A stretch of 64,000 nucleotides of DNA, taken from assembly GCA_017549805.1 (NCBI GenBank), contig JAFYNJ010000018.1, forward strand, positions 12,503 through 76,502, in the 5' to 3' direction. Position 1 is the stretch's first letter. Every line of letters begins with the position of its first letter. This DNA comes from Bacteroidales bacterium (GTDB lineage Bacteria > Bacteroidota > Bacteroidia > Bacteroidales > F082). Below, in pieces: positions 425 through 51,134 of this stretch. Under the pieces are notes generated by a model, which saw only the letters and a program-made list of their open reading frames with translations, did not search any database and had not been told where the DNA came from. The translations under genes and the position numbers were made by a program.

Positions 425-1713
425 CGGGCACATTCTATGATTTTGCGGTACAACTCAGGCCAACCTTCCCATCTTTTCTCCCCTCCAAGGGTCTCATTAT
501 GGGTCAAATAGATGAAGGTTCCATTAACTTTCTTTACTTCATCTATTACTTTAGATATAGTATTATAAGAATCTGATATATTGAGATTCATATAGTCTTT
601 TAATGTTCCATCCATCACAGCAAAAGGATGCACATTGAGGGAGGTGGCGGCGTCGCTCTCCAAGTCATAGAAATGGAAGGTGTTGGCGGTACCGGCACGG
701 AAGCCCACTTGCGAGGCATAGCCCATCGTATAGTCGTCCTTGATATCCAACTCAATCAACCGTTGATAGGTCCGTGGCAAGGTCATCCGCAAAAAGTGCT
801 GACGACTCTTGGTAACTTCGCGATTGAGCACTGACGACAGGCGCTCCACCTCCATCTGCAGGCGTGCTGGGGATGTGTATGACATAAACGATGGATGGAT
901 GCCCACATCGGCATAGTCGCCGATACGCTTGATCAGCTCCCGGAAAGCGTCTTTGCGAATGGAAATGCTCTTGTCGTTGAGGCCATAATCGCCGCAATGG
1001 ATGAAGTAAATCGGTTTCAGGCGGTATTCCTCCTGCAACTGGAACTGGAAATCGAAGCTGTCGAACGGATCCCTTTCGTGCTTGAACAAAACCCTGTTGC
1101 GATGCCGTATCTCCTGCCATTCTCCATCAATAAGGTCTCTCGCGTATGCCCCAGCCGTGCGGAAAAAGCCTTTGTGCAGATAGGCCCAAGCGGCATCCAC
1201 ATCGTATGTCGGCTGGAACACATATTTCTTCGGTTTCACAACCCCCTCAAGATGAAGCACTTTCGCCAATTCTTGGATCCAGATGTCCACCACAGGCTTC
1301 GAAAGCATGCCCATCTGATAAAGGCAGGAGGATTCCGGCGTGAAACGTCCATATTGGTCGCGGATCTGCGGCAGGTATTCCTCGTATCTGGAAACCAGAT
1401 AAAACGATGCAGCAAACACGTCGAAAGGCACCAGGGAACGCTGGCTATACACCGGAAAGATAGCCTTAATGTCTTGAAAATCAAACGGCTTTAGATCCTG
1501 TTCATAGATATCGTGTTCAAACAGAAGATTCACCGATTTCTGGAAAGGCTCGTCCCACAAGGGATTCGGACCATAGCTCATCTTCAGGCCTTCAAAATCC
1601 CTGAACAAAGCCACGTCGGTGGTCAACTCGAAATCGACACCCAGCCTGGTACCGAAAACAAAGTTGAACGTATAGTGGAGCCGGTTGGTAATCTTTGGAA
1701 CGAGAATCAGCAT
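421..1713 (-). CDS. Polysaccharide deacetylase-like conserved protein
   Basis: 430-aa ORF with no competing ORF of similar length. The central region (QPTYDVDAAWAY...IHPSF) resembles the polysaccharide deacetylase/NodB-like fold. Assignment is by recollection only. Confidence 0.55.
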   Translation of the reverse strand: MLILVPKITNRLHYTFNFVFGTRLGVDFELTTDVALFRDFEGLKMSYGPNPLWDEPFQKSVNLLFEHDIYEQDLKPFDFQDIKAIFPVYSQRSLVPFDVFAASFYLVSRYEEYLPQIRDQYGRFTPESSCLYQMGMLSKPVVDIWIQELAKVLHLEGVVKPKKYVFQPTYDVDAAWAYLHKGFFRTAGAYARDLIDGEWQEIRHRNRVLFKHERDPFDSFDFQFQLQEEYRLKPIYFIHCGDYGLNDKSISIRKDAFRELIKRIGDYADVGIHPSFMSYTSPARLQMEVERLSSVLNREVTKSRQHFLRMTLPRTYQRLIELDIKDDYTMGYASQVGFRAGTANTFHFYDLESDAATSLNVHPFAVMDGTLKDYMNLNISDSYNTISKVIDEVKKVNGTFIYLTHNETLGGEKRWEGWPELYRKIIECAR

Positions 1714-44890: not shown

Positions 44891-45130
44891 TCACTCATCC
44901 CCTACCACGCAATACACAAACTCCCTTTCGACCGACTTCTCATAAGACCTTCGATATTGGATTTCTTTTCTCAGCCGCCCGAACTCCTCATGCAATGCGC
45001 TGATTTGCTTGTTGACAGCTTTGATTTTGGCGGCATCGGTTAGCGTGGGGTTCTTTTGATTTAAGGACTTGATTTGGAGCTTTAGAGCATGTGGTTTTTC
45101 TGAATTAGCTATTGGTCTATGTCTTTTGAA
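44891..45130 (-). pseudogene. Startless copy of the 73-aa coiled-coil gene at 45838..46059
   Basis: Hand translation gives an open 79-codon frame ...EKPHALKLQIKSLNQKNPTLTDAAKIKAVNKQISALHEEFGRLRKEIQYRRSYEKSVEREFVYCVVGDE*. It is collinear with MEDLEKLQFLKFQIKDLEQKRTSLTDADQIKAINKQINAFQEELGKLREILKHERAFLKDVEREFIHCEIGGD. No ATG/GTG/TTG lies upstream of the conserved part. Confidence 0.55.
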
Positions 45131-45837: not shown

Positions 45838-46059
45838 TTAATCACCCCCAATCTCACAGTGGATAAACTCTCTTTCAACGTCTTTCAGAAAGGCCCTCTC
45901 GTGTTTCAGTATTTCCCTCAACTTCCCAAGCTCTTCCTGGAAGGCGTTGATTTGCTTGTTAATGGCTTTGATTTGGTCAGCATCAGTCAGCGAGGTCCTC
46001 TTTTGCTCCAAGTCTTTGATTTGAAACTTTAGGAATTGTAGTTTTTCTAAATCTTCCAT
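45838..46059 (-). CDS. Hypothetical coiled-coil protein (73 aa)
   Basis: Heptad-like charged sequence. It shares the L-Q-I-x-x-L-x-Q-K...LTD...I-x-A-[IV]-[ND]-[KQ]-Q-I module with 44891..45130 and with the N-terminus of 46962..47579. Confidence 0.5.
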   Translation of the reverse strand: MEDLEKLQFLKFQIKDLEQKRTSLTDADQIKAINKQINAFQEELGKLREILKHERAFLKDVEREFIHCEIGGD

Positions 46060-46961: not shown

Positions 46962-47579
46962 TTATAGATTTCCCAGCCAAATGCCTCGGCACAAAGCCTT
47001 GGCGGTTTCATGGTCAACAATGCGCATCAACTGATAGGTGTATTTGTCTGTTGCCTCATCATCAATCGCCTCCAAATCAAAAGCATCCCAATACTCCTTA
47101 CCGTATTCAGGGCACAAGAACCTTATCACATCGACAAATGTGATTTTCTCGAATCGTTTCAAGTGGTCATTTTTAACATATTCCCGAAGCCAATAACTAC
47201 CTGCCCAAAACGCAACCGTTCTTTGTCCTATAGTCGCTTTATCCTTATCCAATGTCAGAATCCCCAAAAGCCTCATGGCTTGATAAGGAGGAATATTGGC
47301 ACCTTGCTCCGCCAATTCATAGAACATTTTTTCGTCTTCATTTAATTCTTCCACCATCTTAGGATTTGAGTCATCCTCTGAACCATTGAAGACAACATCA
47401 ATGAGAGCCTTCACATTATTTCTTTCTTCCAACCAATCTTCCGCCTCCAAAGCATCAATTTGCTGATCGATGGCATTTATTTCTGCGACATCGGTCAGAG
47501 CGGCCTTCTTTTGCTCTAATTCCATGATTTGAAGCCGTCGTTCACGTAATCCTTTTGATTTTTCTATAGAATCATTCAT
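46962..47579 (-). CDS. Hypothetical protein (205 aa) with N-terminal coiled-coil module
   Basis: The N-terminus RRLQIMELEQKKAALTDVAEINAIDQQIDALEAE is the third copy of the island module. The C-terminal 140 aa is unassigned. Confidence 0.5.
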   Translation of the reverse strand: MNDSIEKSKGLRERRLQIMELEQKKAALTDVAEINAIDQQIDALEAEDWLEERNNVKALIDVVFNGSEDDSNPKMVEELNEDEKMFYELAEQGANIPPYQAMRLLGILTLDKDKATIGQRTVAFWAGSYWLREYVKNDHLKRFEKITFVDVIRFLCPEYGKEYWDAFDLEAIDDEATDKYTYQLMRIVDHETAKALCRGIWLGNL

Positions 47580-47605
47580 CTGCTTATAGTTATTCTGTTT
47601 TCATT

Positions 47606-47977
47606 TCAGTCCCAGTGACGCCAAGTGTTTTCTTTAGTGCTAACACGATACCCATCATTCACCAACAAATCAACAAGGGACGAAAACGGCTTTGACATGG
47701 TGATACAAGCCACTCCTTTAGGATCCCAACATTCTATGGTCTCAACCGAATCTGGGAAAGCGATTTTGGTCAATGCTGTACATCCCAAAAAAGCATTAGG
47801 ATTTATCGTTTCAACCGTTTTTGGCAAAACCACTTCTTTCAAATCTGTATAATTCAAAAAAGCTCCACTATCAATTATCTTTGTTCCATCAGGAATGACA
47901 CACACACCATCTTTGATATCATCGGGATGACCAAAATAATGATCATACTTTCCTATTCTTTTATCTGCTTTTGCCAT
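47606..47977 (-). CDS. Small BspA-type leucine-rich-repeat (LRR_5-like) protein
   Basis: IPDGTKIIDSGAFLNYTDLKEVVLPKTVETINPNAFLGCTALTKIAFPDSVETIE matches the IPxxVxxIGxxAFxxCxxL repeat. Confidence 0.55.
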   Translation of the reverse strand: MAKADKRIGKYDHYFGHPDDIKDGVCVIPDGTKIIDSGAFLNYTDLKEVVLPKTVETINPNAFLGCTALTKIAFPDSVETIECWDPKGVACITMSKPFSSLVDLLVNDGYRVSTKENTWRHWD

Positions 47978-48100
47978 ATTATTTGTTTTTATTTTTTTCT
48001 ATCCTTTTTTTCATCGCAAAGAAACACCCATTTCCTCAATCCCATCTGGATCTTATTGGTTCATATCACCCCGCCGTTTGACAACACAAAAAAAGCGTGA

Positions 48101-48108
48101 TACTTTTG
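48101..48108 (+). promoter_or_regulatory. -7 promoter box TActTTTG pointing into the long hairpin
   Basis: Exact TAnnTTTG match 7 nt before the hairpin base at 48115. Confidence 0.35.
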
Positions 48109-48114
48109 CATCCG

Positions 48115-48231
48115 CTTATCGAGGTGTTTGGCATACCTAAAGAAACCGAATGTTAAAAGTTCACGCTATACGGCGTGACTTTTAGCATTATCTCCGTTTC
48201 TTTATCCAAAAATCGCCAAACTTCCGATAAG
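48115..48231. ncRNA. 117-nt imperfect hairpin: candidate sRNA, or structured 5' leader/antisense pair
   Basis: Manual pairing: 48115-48121 with 48225-48231; 48126-48132 with 48215-48221; 48139-48146 with 48196-48203; 48152-48159 with 48179-48186; 48161-48166 with 48173-48178. Loop TATACG. Strand undetermined. Confidence 0.45.
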
Positions 48232-48316
48232 AAAGATTACTGCTAATTGTCTGTATTGCTTATCTCATACGCCTTGCGGCAAGATCACTTCATAGGCATT
48301 TTTTTGTTTTACGCTT

Positions 48317-48324
48317 CAAAGATA
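48317..48324 (-). promoter_or_regulatory. -7 promoter box (minus strand TAtcTTTG), candidate promoter of the small-gene island
   Basis: The plus strand reads CAAAGATA. It lies just downstream (minus sense) of the lipoprotein gene terminator, about 340 nt before the ATG at 47977. Confidence 0.4.
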
Positions 48325-48363
48325 AGTATTTTTTGAAATCAATCAAAGCGATTGTTGGTTTTT

Positions 48364-48404
48364 ATAAAAAAAAGCGGCAACGCCTTTTTCCTGACGATGC
48401 CGCT
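48364..48404 (-). terminator. Rho-independent terminator after the 48437..49261 lipoprotein gene
   Basis: Minus strand reads AGCGGCA-N18-TGCCGCT followed by T8. Confidence 0.6.
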
Positions 48405-48436
48405 CAAAGAACCTGACGTTCCAACTTCAGTCATCT

Positions 48437-49261
48437 CTATTCATCATATTCAAAGACCGCGTCAGTAAAACTCTCTTCAATCTTTTCATAACGCTTCTTC
48501 TGGGTCGAGGTCATCTTGCCCGACTTGTATGCCTTATCCAGTTCATCCTCTAAATCGTCAGCCGCCCAAAAGTATTTATCAACTTGAGATTCAACACTCT
48601 TGTCTCCCTTGCTAAGCTTCTTTACATACTTGATATATTCGTTCACGTTCTTTTCATAATCATCAAGCATTTTGTTCCAGTCTTGGCTGGATGATGACGA
48701 TGAAACGGTGGTGTTGTTAGCCGTGCTACTTGAACTGCTTGACTTGTGAGCCCAACTCAATTCCACAGTCAGACCAATCCCGTCAATAAGGTCAAAATAG
48801 GCTTTTTGTTTTTTGTATGATTTATCACCAAAACCATATTCAATGATCGGGACATTCCCCGTGATAAGCTCATTCGATTTCAACAGCTTTTCTCCACTTT
48901 GATAATCCGTCTGAACATCGAGATCCACCTTCATATTATACTGGTCGATGTACTTGGCATATATTCTTACCCCATAAATACTATGATCAAGTTTGGGATC
49001 ACTTCCTGGTATTTCGTTCCAAAGAGTTGTGTTTTTTAGCGGAAGATCGGCACGAATCTCCCATTTGTCACCCTCCACCCCAACTGGAACAAGCATCAAC
49101 GTGACGGGATCCTCAATCTCAAAAAGATCGGCATTTTTCCCGTCAATGCTCACCCTATCGGATGAAATCGTCTTGCTTAACACTTTCTTTTTCTGGCATG
49201 AGGTGACGGTAACCGCTAACAACATCAGGACAACAAGTCCAAACAGTCCTGTCTTTTTCAT
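48437..49261 (-). CDS. Lipoprotein with poly-Ser linker, unknown function
   Basis: Lipobox LLAVTVTSC. Internal SSSSSSTANNTTVSSSSSS linker, then a charged helical C-terminal domain. Confidence 0.65.
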   Translation of the reverse strand: MKKTGLFGLVVLMLLAVTVTSCQKKKVLSKTISSDRVSIDGKNADLFEIEDPVTLMLVPVGVEGDKWEIRADLPLKNTTLWNEIPGSDPKLDHSIYGVRIYAKYIDQYNMKVDLDVQTDYQSGEKLLKSNELITGNVPIIEYGFGDKSYKKQKAYFDLIDGIGLTVELSWAHKSSSSSSTANNTTVSSSSSSQDWNKMLDDYEKNVNEYIKYVKKLSKGDKSVESQVDKYFWAADDLEDELDKAYKSGKMTSTQKKRYEKIEESFTDAVFEYDE

Positions 49262-49355
49262 CTGAAAATCCCTAATTCCGTGTCGGGCGCAACTTCTAAA
49301 GGTAAATTGAAATACCTTGCAAAGAAACGCCCTTTCAACGGAATATCCGCGGATC

Positions 49356-50486
49356 TTATTGGCTCATGTTTTGGGCGTTTTCCTCATTGATCCTATCCGA
49401 CAACCTGAAACAAACCGCGTTGTACTTCTCGTTGTGGAGATGCTCCCAGGCCGTGACGAACTCATCACGGGTTTTCGGATCGTCGAGCAAGGGTGACTGG
49501 ATGTCCTGCAGCAACGACCTGCAAACCTTCACCCGATCCACAAAGTCAAGAGAAACCTCTTGACTGGATTTGCCACTGTCAAGGTCGGCCAACACGGGGT
49601 TGTACATGCTGTCGATGATATGCTCCGCCCTATCGAGAAGTTCCGTGAACTCAAGGGAATAACCATCGAGGCGAGACAGCTCTTTCGACCTCATGAAAAA
49701 CAACGCCGCCAATAGGCCCAATACGGCAACTACCAAAGCCAACTTAGGCCAGACGGCCCTGTTTCGGAAAGCCTTCTGTACGGCTTCAATATTGCCGTAA
49801 CGGCGCTCCCTGTCTTGACGAGAACACTTGGCGGCAATGTGTCGGAAACGATTCGGAAAGACCTCTCGCAACAACATGCCGAAAGTGTAAATGTCGGCGC
49901 GACCGTCAATCTTCACCTCGGGCTGTATCTGCTCCGGCGCCATGTATTGCTGCGTGCCTGCGGGTTGCTTCAACAAGGCATAATCGTCCGCATCGGAAAG
50001 ACCGAAGTCAATCAGCTTTACATTGTGACCATTACGGGTAATCAGGATGTTACTCGGCTTCAAGTCGCGATGGACGATTTGCTTACCATGGACATACTTC
50101 AAGGCATCCAAGATCTGTTCCAGCACCTTCTTTTTCTCCGAAACTGATGGATTGGCCCTCAAAAACTCATCCAACGTCACTCCATCCACATACTCCATCA
50201 CAATGCACGGGCCCACCTCGGGATTCACCTCCTTGTATAACGCCTTCACGATGTTGAGATGATCCATCTGAATGGAAAGCTCATATTCCTTTTTCAGCAG
50301 ATCCAGGTACATGGGCTGCTGCATGAACTCCGGCTTCAAACCTTTCAGCAGGAACCATCTACCCTGACGCATGACCTTCACCAAGCGGTTGAATCCATGC
50401 GTCGTCAGCTCCTCGTAAGTCAGCTGCTCGTCTAAATCGGTGATAAAGCCGCCATCAATGATCTCGGAGGTGAAGTCTTCGTCCAT
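49356..50486 (-). CDS. Membrane-anchored serine/threonine protein kinase
   Basis: HRDLKPSNILI catalytic loop, DFGLS, APEQ. One TM helix (WPKLALVVAVLGLLAALFF) followed by a helical C-terminal domain of about 110 aa. Confidence 0.85.
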   Translation of the reverse strand: MDEDFTSEIIDGGFITDLDEQLTYEELTTHGFNRLVKVMRQGRWFLLKGLKPEFMQQPMYLDLLKKEYELSIQMDHLNIVKALYKEVNPEVGPCIVMEYVDGVTLDEFLRANPSVSEKKKVLEQILDALKYVHGKQIVHRDLKPSNILITRNGHNVKLIDFGLSDADDYALLKQPAGTQQYMAPEQIQPEVKIDGRADIYTFGMLLREVFPNRFRHIAAKCSRQDRERRYGNIEAVQKAFRNRAVWPKLALVVAVLGLLAALFFMRSKELSRLDGYSLEFTELLDRAEHIIDSMYNPVLADLDSGKSSQEVSLDFVDRVKVCRSLLQDIQSPLLDDPKTRDEFVTAWEHLHNEKYNAVCFRLSDRINEENAQNMSQ

Positions 50487-50502
50487 TTGCTTTCATTTCC
50501 AG

Positions 50503-50510
50503 CAAAAATA
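50503..50510 (-). promoter_or_regulatory. -7 promoter box (minus strand TAttTTTG) upstream of the kinase gene
   Basis: The plus strand reads CAAAAATA, 17 nt from the kinase ATG at 50486. Confidence 0.4.
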
Positions 50511-50570
50511 GACAAAAAACTTTCTTTTTTGCCCAAATCGTCGCATTTTTGCATTATAAAACCGAACCAC

Positions 50571-51134
50571 ATGAACAACGACAGCCCTGAAATACAGGAA
50601 CTCCTGAAACAAATTGAGGACCTTACCCACATCAAACCCAAATCCCCGTCCGATTTCGACCAACTCAGCGACATCATTTGGAAAAGCACCCACGAAACCC
50701 TTAGCGCCTCGACATTGAAACGTCTTTGGGGTTACTTCAAAGGCGTGGGGACCATCCGCAACAGCACTTTGGTCATCCTCTCCAAGTTTCTCGGCTTCAA
50801 AGGCTGGGACGACTTCCTCGCACATCTTAGTCAAGACAACGGGTCCGATCCCGTATTATCACCTATCGTAAAAACGGACGACCTGGCTGTCGGCGACCGT
50901 ATCACCGTGTCGTGGAAACCCAACCGCCGCTGCACCTTCCGCTATCTCGGCAACCAACAATTCATTGTGGAAAAAGCCGTCAATTCCAAATTGAAAGAGG
51001 GCAACACATTCCACTGCAATGTCTTCATCCTGGGCGCACCGCTCTACCTCACCGACCTAATTCAAAACCAAAAAGCTCCCGTGGCCTTCGTGGCAGGGAA
51101 AAAAGACGGATTGTGTGAAATCATCCGCTCCTAA
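50571..51134 (+). CDS. Hypothetical protein (187 aa), possible N-terminal HTH-like segment
   Basis: Start reset to MNNDSPEIQ. LSASTLKRLWGYFKG recalls the DNA-binding N-termini of some Bacteroidota proteins. Weak. Confidence 0.5.
   Translation: MNNDSPEIQELLKQIEDLTHIKPKSPSDFDQLSDIIWKSTHETLSASTLKRLWGYFKGVGTIRNSTLVILSKFLGFKGWDDFLAHLSQDNGSDPVLSPIVKTDDLAVGDRITVSWKPNRRCTFRYLGNQQFIVEKAVNSKLKEGNTFHCNVFILGAPLYLTDLIQNQKAPVAFVAGKKDGLCEIIRS

Follow-up and report, generated by a model that had tools for sequence, protein, structure and literature searches.

A probable terminated minus-strand leader RNA at the head of a variable gene island in Bacteroidales, and an uncatalogued family of related leaders with four-segment alternative pairing

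Transcription attenuators of the trp, his and pyrBI type are built from four segments with mutually exclusive pairings: either 1:2 together with 3:4, the latter forming a terminator at the U-run, or 2:3, which acts as the antiterminator. The unit lies between the promoter and the regulated genes, and the order of synthesis predicts the terminator fold. In riboswitches and T-boxes, as in the protein-gated leaders (LicT/SacY RAT, PyrR, TRAP and ANTAR), the terminator likewise hinges on an alternative upstream helix. The RNA described here resembles both groups in these respects and, like the second, offers possible binding sites for a factor in its conserved internal loops.

The Bacteroidales are dominant in gut and rumen communities and, to our knowledge, little is understood of how their large, fast-changing sets of surface, defence and immunity genes are controlled, apart from promoter inversion and UpxY. 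The UpxY/ops leaders resemble the present RNA in being a Bacteroidales leader region for elongation control of variable surface-structure operons; they consist of a short pause site, a small pause hairpin and a non-template DNA hairpin, the last being recognised by a NusG paralogue that the first gene encodes (PMC11685472). FopS and GibS of Bacteroides thetaiotaomicron are comparable as multicopy paralogous RNAs with TAnnTTTG promoters and Rho-independent terminators. FopS, which according to the same report has been deposited in Rfam, is 65–70 nt long, has a single-stranded 5′ seed (R1) and only a terminator hairpin, and acts in trans on susC mRNAs, whilst GibS is longer than FopS (PMC11697453). 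Lastly, the rAID-1 arrays are, by their description, similar in consisting of short co-oriented, GC-skewed, horizontally acquired Bacteroidales genes behind a conserved non-coding stretch; conserved non-coding motifs are reported at the array head and no RNA interpretation is given for them (Ross et al., bioRxiv 10.1101/471110).

The window analysed here is a 64,000-nt stretch of a Bacteroidales genome (assembly GCA_017549805.1, contig JAFYNJ010000018.1), in which a 117-nt hairpin precedes an island of small genes on the minus strand. The features to which the text refers are the following, in minus-strand order.

48343–48346, minus strand: TTTG resembling a −33 element, read from the sequence; it belongs to the leader promoter P2 and lies 19 nt ahead of the −7 box
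48316–48323, minus strand: −7 box TAnnTTTG of P2, with the consensus kept and the free positions variable
48271–48280, minus strand: 3-bp hairpin with a GNRA tetraloop in the 5′ segment (loop GCAA here, GUAA in relatives)
48232–48252, minus strand: segment 1 (X0), just 5′ of the hairpin, a potential partner of segment 2 in the apical helix
48115–48231, minus strand: 117-nt rod with helices H1–H5 and conserved internal loops, from folding and covariation
48172–48185, minus strand: segment 2 (X′a), the 5′ strand of the apical helix, predicted to pair with segment 3 in the rod or with segment 1 in the nascent RNA
48155–48167, minus strand: segment 3 (X), the 3′ strand of the apical helix with an invariant GCGUG, complementary to 48094–48107
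48094–48116, minus strand: local intrinsic-terminator hairpin Y:T3, 9 bp with one bulge (−11.2 kcal/mol, z −4.79)
48101–48108, plus strand: TAnnTTTG box of the first-pass annotation, a putative promoter lying in the terminator loop and stem
48094–48107, minus strand: segment 4 (T3), beside the U-run, the partner of segment 3, here with a local partner at 48108–48116
48088–48094, minus strand: terminator U-run of seven U (an A-run on the plus strand), invariant in close homologues
48047–48063, minus strand: conserved direct-repeat motif of two 7-mers about 11 bp apart, the second degenerate here
48016–48023, minus strand: weak −7-like box TTnnTTTG (P3), without the consensus A at position 2, its position conserved in the kinase-linked subfamily
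47606–47977, minus strand: first island gene, encoding a 123-aa BspA-type LRR protein (Pfam LRR_5, E 3.9e-11)

The first-pass annotation, made from the sequence alone, had described a long imperfect hairpin at 48115–48231 in a region without an ORF of note, and both descriptions hold. The stretch 48101–48324 folds at −58.1 kcal/mol on the plus strand (z −3.99, equalled by none of 200 shuffles) and at −55.3 kcal/mol on the minus strand (z −2.40), thereby beating shuffled sequence, and the hairpin by itself reaches −45.3 (plus) and −42.5 (minus) kcal/mol. No conserved ORF was found in the region; the ORFs within the element are unconserved and broken by indels between homologues in the close-homologue alignment. 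A T-run reported near 48298–48306 is likewise present in the sequence.

Bacteroides promoters follow the layout TTTG-N19-21-TAnnTTTG, and the spacing of P2 agrees with it. The minus-strand TAnnTTTG box had been placed one base off, at 48317–48324; it exists, at 48316–48323, and is retained in 23 of 23 close homologues, its two free positions being variable. By sequence P2 is a canonical sigma-ABfr-type promoter that is presumably in use, and transcription of the leader would start near 48310. Across the wider family a same-strand TAnnTTTG box lies 41–151 nt upstream in 46 of 55 members, the other nine having no recognizable box. The 5′ segment before the hairpin is about 85 nt long and, in the family layout, A-rich; its tetraloop fits GNRA on the minus strand only and so serves as a strand indicator. 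Near the 5′ end of the leader there is a four-codon mini-ORF, AUG CCU AUG AAG UGA (48286–48300, minus strand); an ORF of two to four codons occupies the matching place in some close homologues and is absent from the wider family.

At the other end of the unit a G+C-containing stem, overlooked in the first-pass annotation, runs straight into the U-run on the minus strand, as in an intrinsic terminator. The stem covaries in relatives through compensatory changes, and the U-run is found in nearly all family members. A simple terminator scanner gave nothing because the stem has a bulge, and direct folding was used instead. The 3′ end of the leader is thus predicted at the U-run, about 115 nt ahead of the first start codon, and the minus strand would yield a non-coding RNA of about 225 nt that starts at P2 and ends at the intrinsic terminator at 48088–48116. 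Of the options raised in the first-pass annotation, that of a structured regulatory leader controlling the island is favoured; its form as a plain 5′ UTR of 340 nt is wrong, since the terminator intervenes.

BLAST of the 2.73-Mb source genome found the element as a single copy, and within the genus recovered it from 22 of 150 species. An exact-pattern scan of 185,579 species genomes matched only uncultured Bacteroidales MAGs from rumen, goat, buffalo and horse. With a covariance model built for the minus-strand unit (R1), the RNA was detected in 20 of the 28 high-quality genomes of the genus, with up to six copies each in the form of diverged full-length paralogues, and in one genome of a neighbouring genus. 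When the model was rebuilt from 36 members (R2) and applied across the order, matches of 50–87 bits were obtained in 48 of 151 genomes, representing 46 of 148 genera, with up to 17 copies per genome. Common to these matches are two basal helices that covary, an invariant internal loop that is asymmetric, CACGC and GCGUG in the apical helix, and the U-run. Scored with R1 and with R2, the latter a model partly built from it, the window element reaches 168 and 154.7 bits, respectively, and it combines a full-length model match with a −7 box, a U-run terminator and a co-oriented ORF. Paralogues that can be detected by covariance model alone score 32–53 bits, against 155–168 for self. The source genome contains two such paralogues, far more divergent than the element itself; one of them (G000:C21:17269–17449, minus strand, equivalent to locus L113:3501–3681) scores 53 bits with R2, has a GC content of 0.50, and carries a large apical insertion and a strong local terminator.

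Covariation in relatives had been proposed as a test of the hairpin, and it is observed. In an alignment of 55 members from many genera (A7), 87.9% of cells are paired, compared with 58.7% after shuffling and about 38% in slid controls, and 43 of 43 modelled pairs have changed on both sides in a compensatory manner; the covariation score is 0.695 against 0.196 and is reached by none of 500 shuffles, figures to be read in the light of the fact that alignments fitted to a covariance model lean towards the modelled structure. Helices H1 and H2, which invariant flanks anchor, show 99% pairing and four types of pair each. The element had been said to match no known RNA class, and Rfam 15 agrees: window positions 47000–49500 gave noise only (at most 19 bits at E up to 10), fifteen paralogue loci, scanned at E up to 0.1, showed no match on the element, and five order-level loci gave no match at the gathering score. 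A literature search found no paper describing the rod-leader RNA, and BLAST of the element against plasmid and phage collections gave no match. Judged by these comparisons, the element is a member of a large uncatalogued family of Bacteroidales leader RNAs that is absent from Rfam.

The position of family members relative to genes suggests how they act. A same-strand ORF of at least 50 aa starts 9–408 nt (median 83.5) past the U-run in 54 of 55 members, the sole exception being cut by a contig end. A canonical promoter box occurs in two of the 54 gaps between U-run and ORF, and the 19 gaps no longer than 60 nt all lack one. Close co-oriented ORFs combined with a near-absence of gap promoters argue that the unit acts as a cis leader whose terminator must be passed. 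No common function was found among the downstream genes: the first genes encode LRR_5/T9SS cargo, lipoproteins, C10 and S8 peptidases, LytTR, RmuC, a ResIII helicase, a MotA/ExbB-like protein and an FGE-sulfatase protein. Because they share no metabolic theme, a small-molecule ligand is unlikely.

Several individual loci deserve mention. One 2.0-Mb genome (G359, loci L095–L105) carries sixteen copies, with the same promoter variant in all 11 examined except L102; several of these copies head BspA-type LRR proteins that have T9SS sorting tails and near-identical signal peptides. One copy in the same genome (L100:3708–6500, plus strand) heads a set of three genes, the first of which encodes a MotA/ExbB-like protein of 486 aa that has a long coiled tail; the set may be a Zorya-like defence system. 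In a complete 3.9-Mb genome (G345), four copies (L106–L109) have no recognizable upstream −7 box and are followed by at least about 400 nt without a clear ORF and then by a repeated downstream unit, with the same spurious small ORFs recurring in all four. These recurring ORFs had suggested rRNA operons downstream of the G345 copies, an idea that was abandoned as Rfam found no rRNA. Finally, at L083 a sub-threshold match to the DUF805b RNA motif (1313–1344, minus strand; 34.5 bits against a gathering score of 35.6) lies between the member's terminator and the next gene, which would place two leader elements in series.

The distinctive property of the family is a set of alternative pairings among four segments. 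In the window, segments 3 and 4 are complementary over 13 bp with one bulge, and the 3:4 duplex has a family mean of −15.6 kcal/mol for a member's own segments, −11.5 kcal/mol between members and −6.7 ± 2.9 kcal/mol for shuffled sequence; a control with another stretch of the 3′ arm reaches −4.9 kcal/mol. The corresponding values for 1:2 are −11.05 (own), −8.4 (between members) and −6.3 ± 2.5 kcal/mol (shuffled). Compensatory changes in 3:4 are seen in several lineages; in L092, segment 3 has changed from GCGUG to ACGCG and segment 4 from CACGC to CGCGU. Complementarity between segments 1 and 4 does not rise above shuffles across the family (−6.1 own versus −5.5), and a pairing of segment 1 with segment 4 that would lengthen the rod was ruled out on these duplex energies. 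When the nascent RNA is cut just before segment 3, pairing of 1 with 2 is predicted in 44 of 46 members. In stability the rod exceeds the two-hairpin fold by a median of 13 kcal/mol, and forcing 3:4 costs 4–21 kcal/mol relative to the MFE, so that the terminator fold would have to be a kinetic product. The local partner of segment 4 reaches −7 kcal/mol or lower in 17 of the 55 members and is weak or absent in 32. An arrangement in which the local Y:T3 hairpin is the family terminator and 3:4 the antiterminator was dropped on account of those 32 members, which have no usable local hairpin; for most members, 3:4 would then be the sole terminator and the rod the antiterminator.

These data are consistent with a model in which the RNA has two folds. 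In the first, 1:2 and 3:4 would form two hairpins, of which the second abuts the U-run as a terminator; in the second, segments 2 and 3 would pair and the arms zip into a single rod, the predicted thermodynamic ground state. In most members the rod would leave segment 4 without a partner, allowing RNA polymerase to read through. The order of synthesis should favour 1:2 and then 3:4, and hence termination, whereas for read-through something would have to hold off or displace segment 1. We infer this direction of the switch from the modelled folds. The leader RNAs of the family most likely gate transcription into downstream accessory genes by conditional termination.

The pairings match those of a four-segment attenuator, with 1:2 and 3:4 set against 2:3 and with 3:4 abutting the U-run. 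What the family does not have is a leader peptide: the 5′ segments share no conserved ORF, divergent members have no AUG there, and sensing through a leader peptide was ruled out, ORFs that start in the 5′ arm being unconserved. Ribosome stalling therefore cannot be the sensor, as it is in trp-type systems. The family further differs from these in that segments 2 and 3 form the tip of a rod of 117 nt, with arms that zip up as well over about 22 further bp, in that the downstream genes are mutually unrelated, and in that a third of the members, the window's included, add a local partner for segment 4. From riboswitches and T-boxes it is set apart by having no match in Rfam 15 and no shared downstream pathway; inspection of the alignments by eye revealed no ANTAR dual hexaloops, RAT, T-box sequence or specifier loop. 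Identity with the UpxY/ops leaders was rejected because the architecture is different: the rod leader has no upxY-like first gene, and has a 117-nt rod and a U-run terminator (PMC11685472). Membership of the FopS/GibS group was rejected on length and paired architecture, the present RNA being about 225 nt long, almost fully base-paired and located just upstream of a co-oriented gene in 54 of 55 cases, and the Rfam scans gave no match. Unlike rAID-1 arrays, which have a XerD-like recombinase just upstream, the window's locus has a lipoprotein and a Ser/Thr kinase there and no recombinase.

The window's subfamily has a constant genetic setting. In eight of eight loci a divergent 187-aa protein without a Pfam match and a Ser/Thr kinase, sometimes accompanied by a lipoprotein, precede the element, which is followed by a hypervariable array; between them the arrays encode LRR_5 proteins, KAP NTPase, PD-(D/E)XK nucleases, DUF4143 ATPases and a GIY-YIG-like protein. 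The array lies on the same strand as the minus-strand leader in all eight, opposite to the plus-strand RNA of the first-pass annotation. The complete unit, from the 187-aa protein through the leader to the array, is syntenic in eight species (window positions 48437–51134 and loci L037–L043) and its kinase is a membrane Ser/Thr kinase; the whole module is inverted relative to tamB/addA between the source genome and G094. Two genomes, G142 and G084, have two element copies in one array.

In this subfamily segment 4 has a strong local partner (48108–48116), so that both folds put a stem beside the U-run and a simple switch fails to explain regulation. Termination may here be largely constitutive, and the island would be fed by residual read-through, by a promoter past the terminator that probably depends on an activator, or by both. 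A conserved region of 75 nt, situated between the U-run and the first start codon (47977), holds the direct repeat and the P3 box. The half-sites of the repeat change together between subtypes, and the repeat (48047–48063) is a candidate activator site; the stretch 48016–48063 on the minus strand looks like an activator-dependent promoter. The adjacent Ser/Thr kinase and 187-aa protein are candidate regulators of the island. Taken as a whole, the locus is, in our judgement, probably best explained as the terminated minus-strand leader of a four-segment switch family, one that in the window's subfamily is perhaps constitutively terminated.

The main rival to this explanation is a family of stand-alone, trans-acting sRNAs, for instance protein sponges or base-pairing regulators, whose linkage to genes would be incidental or due to co-mobilization. 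The unit owns a promoter and a terminator, as such an sRNA would, and multicopy paralogous sRNA families such as FopS are known in Bacteroides (PMC11697453); in the window's subfamily the local terminator is strong and a promoter-like region lies downstream, and elsewhere some members, such as that at L071, are followed by another promoter. This rival consequently fits the window's subfamily best and the family-wide linkage to genes poorly, given the close co-oriented ORF in 54 of 55 members and the promoters in only two of 54 gaps, none of them a gap of 60 nt or less. The family has no conserved single-stranded seed region, and the conserved 3:4 and 1:2 alternative pairings are a hallmark of an expression platform. 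We regard it as unlikely. A DNA-level element, whether an inverted repeat of the MITE type, an attC-like recombination site in a cassette array or a cruciform binding site, is very improbable. A long palindrome does head a hypervariable, AT-richer array of small co-oriented genes, the conserved intergenic motifs of rAID-1 arrays have been called 'reminiscent of integrons' (bioRxiv 10.1101/471110), and G142 and G084 show that one array may have two copies. However, the two ends of the unit are unlike, a promoter at one and a stem and U-run at the other; the unit is present once per array head and not once per cassette; no recombinase or transposase is consistently adjacent, and at the eight subfamily loci, where no recombinase was seen, the neighbours are the kinase, the lipoprotein and DUF4143 ATPases. 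The 3:4 complementarity also extends outside the palindrome, the GNRA loop and the G.U/A-U alternation indicate RNA, and the plasmid and phage collections hold no match. The first-pass annotation had reasoned that multiple genomic copies would reveal a mere MITE; copies do exist, but they are highly diverged within a genome, asymmetric and kept by covariation, and do not reflect recent transposition. Nor was a conserved small hydrophobic toxin ORF, of the kind expected in a type I toxin–antitoxin system, found in the element.

The remaining rival is the plus-strand sRNA raised in the first-pass annotation, which would start at 48113–48115 from the box at 48101–48108 and, as a cis-antisense partner of the leader, control the island through duplex formation or transcriptional collision. 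The box exists as stated: it is a perfect TAnnTTTG immediately ahead of the base of the hairpin, a TTTG lies 19 nt upstream of it, and box and flanks are invariant in all close homologues. The plus strand also has the better z score over 48101–48324 (−3.99 versus −2.40), and two invariant tandem A.C mismatches on the minus strand become G.U pairs when read on the plus strand. A promoter role for the box finds no support outside the window's invariant subfamily: the box is missing from 44 of 55 family members, whose terminator loops differ, and is confined to 11 members that are exactly that subfamily. Its −33 position is unconserved even in close homologues, and its invariance is explained by overlapping constraints from the terminator and segment 4. 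In the close-homologue alignment the invariant block comprises the A-run, the plus-strand box and the outer 5′ arm, and the inner hairpin differs by whole-helix compensation. The chance of a TAnnTTTG in an AT-rich stretch of 150 nt is, by a rough estimate, a few per cent. The predicted end of that RNA at the T-run, after about 190 nt, fares no better, for a conserved plus-strand terminator is absent; past the hairpin in the plus direction, the region is of three unrelated types among close homologues. Once the terminator is included, the minus strand folds better than the plus strand in 22 of 23 homologues. Within the hairpin the G.U strand test is ambiguous, giving 90 versus 121 cells in a strand-neutral count and 54 (minus) versus 28 (plus) on fixed columns, with A-U/G.U alternation commoner for the minus strand; the strand was therefore assigned from the promoter, the terminator, the GNRA loop and gene orientation. 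With the box limited to one subfamily and no conserved plus-strand terminator, neither a plus-strand sRNA nor an antisense pair is needed to account for the conservation, and we consider this rival improbable, rather more so than the stand-alone sRNA; any such plus-strand RNA would be local to the window's subfamily.

The preferred reading, a terminated minus-strand leader belonging to a four-segment switch family, can be extended more tentatively. With less than even confidence, we suggest that the rod leader is a general factor-gated switch for acquired accessory genes, in which an RNA-binding protein or an RNA frees segment 2, and which is kinase-coupled at this locus. If so, a factor that releases segment 2 from segment 1 would turn on whole sets of accessory loci together, including surface LRR/T9SS proteins, peptidases, and defence and immunity arrays, and the membrane Ser/Thr kinase module might control the island via the direct repeat and the weak promoter past the terminator. 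A leader present in about a third of sampled genera, and attenuator-like without a leader peptide, would represent a new and testable regulatory layer. For annotators, the family is a sizeable one missing from Rfam and a marker of the heads of variable arrays, and the covariance model permits cultured carriers to be identified.

Within the island itself, a 90-nt segment occurs three times at 71–74% identity (44989–45078, 45936–46025 and 47444–47533). One copy lies in no ORF examined and the other two lie within the genes at 45838–46059 and 46962–47579, which, by virtue of the shared repeat, have a paralogous N-terminal module in common.
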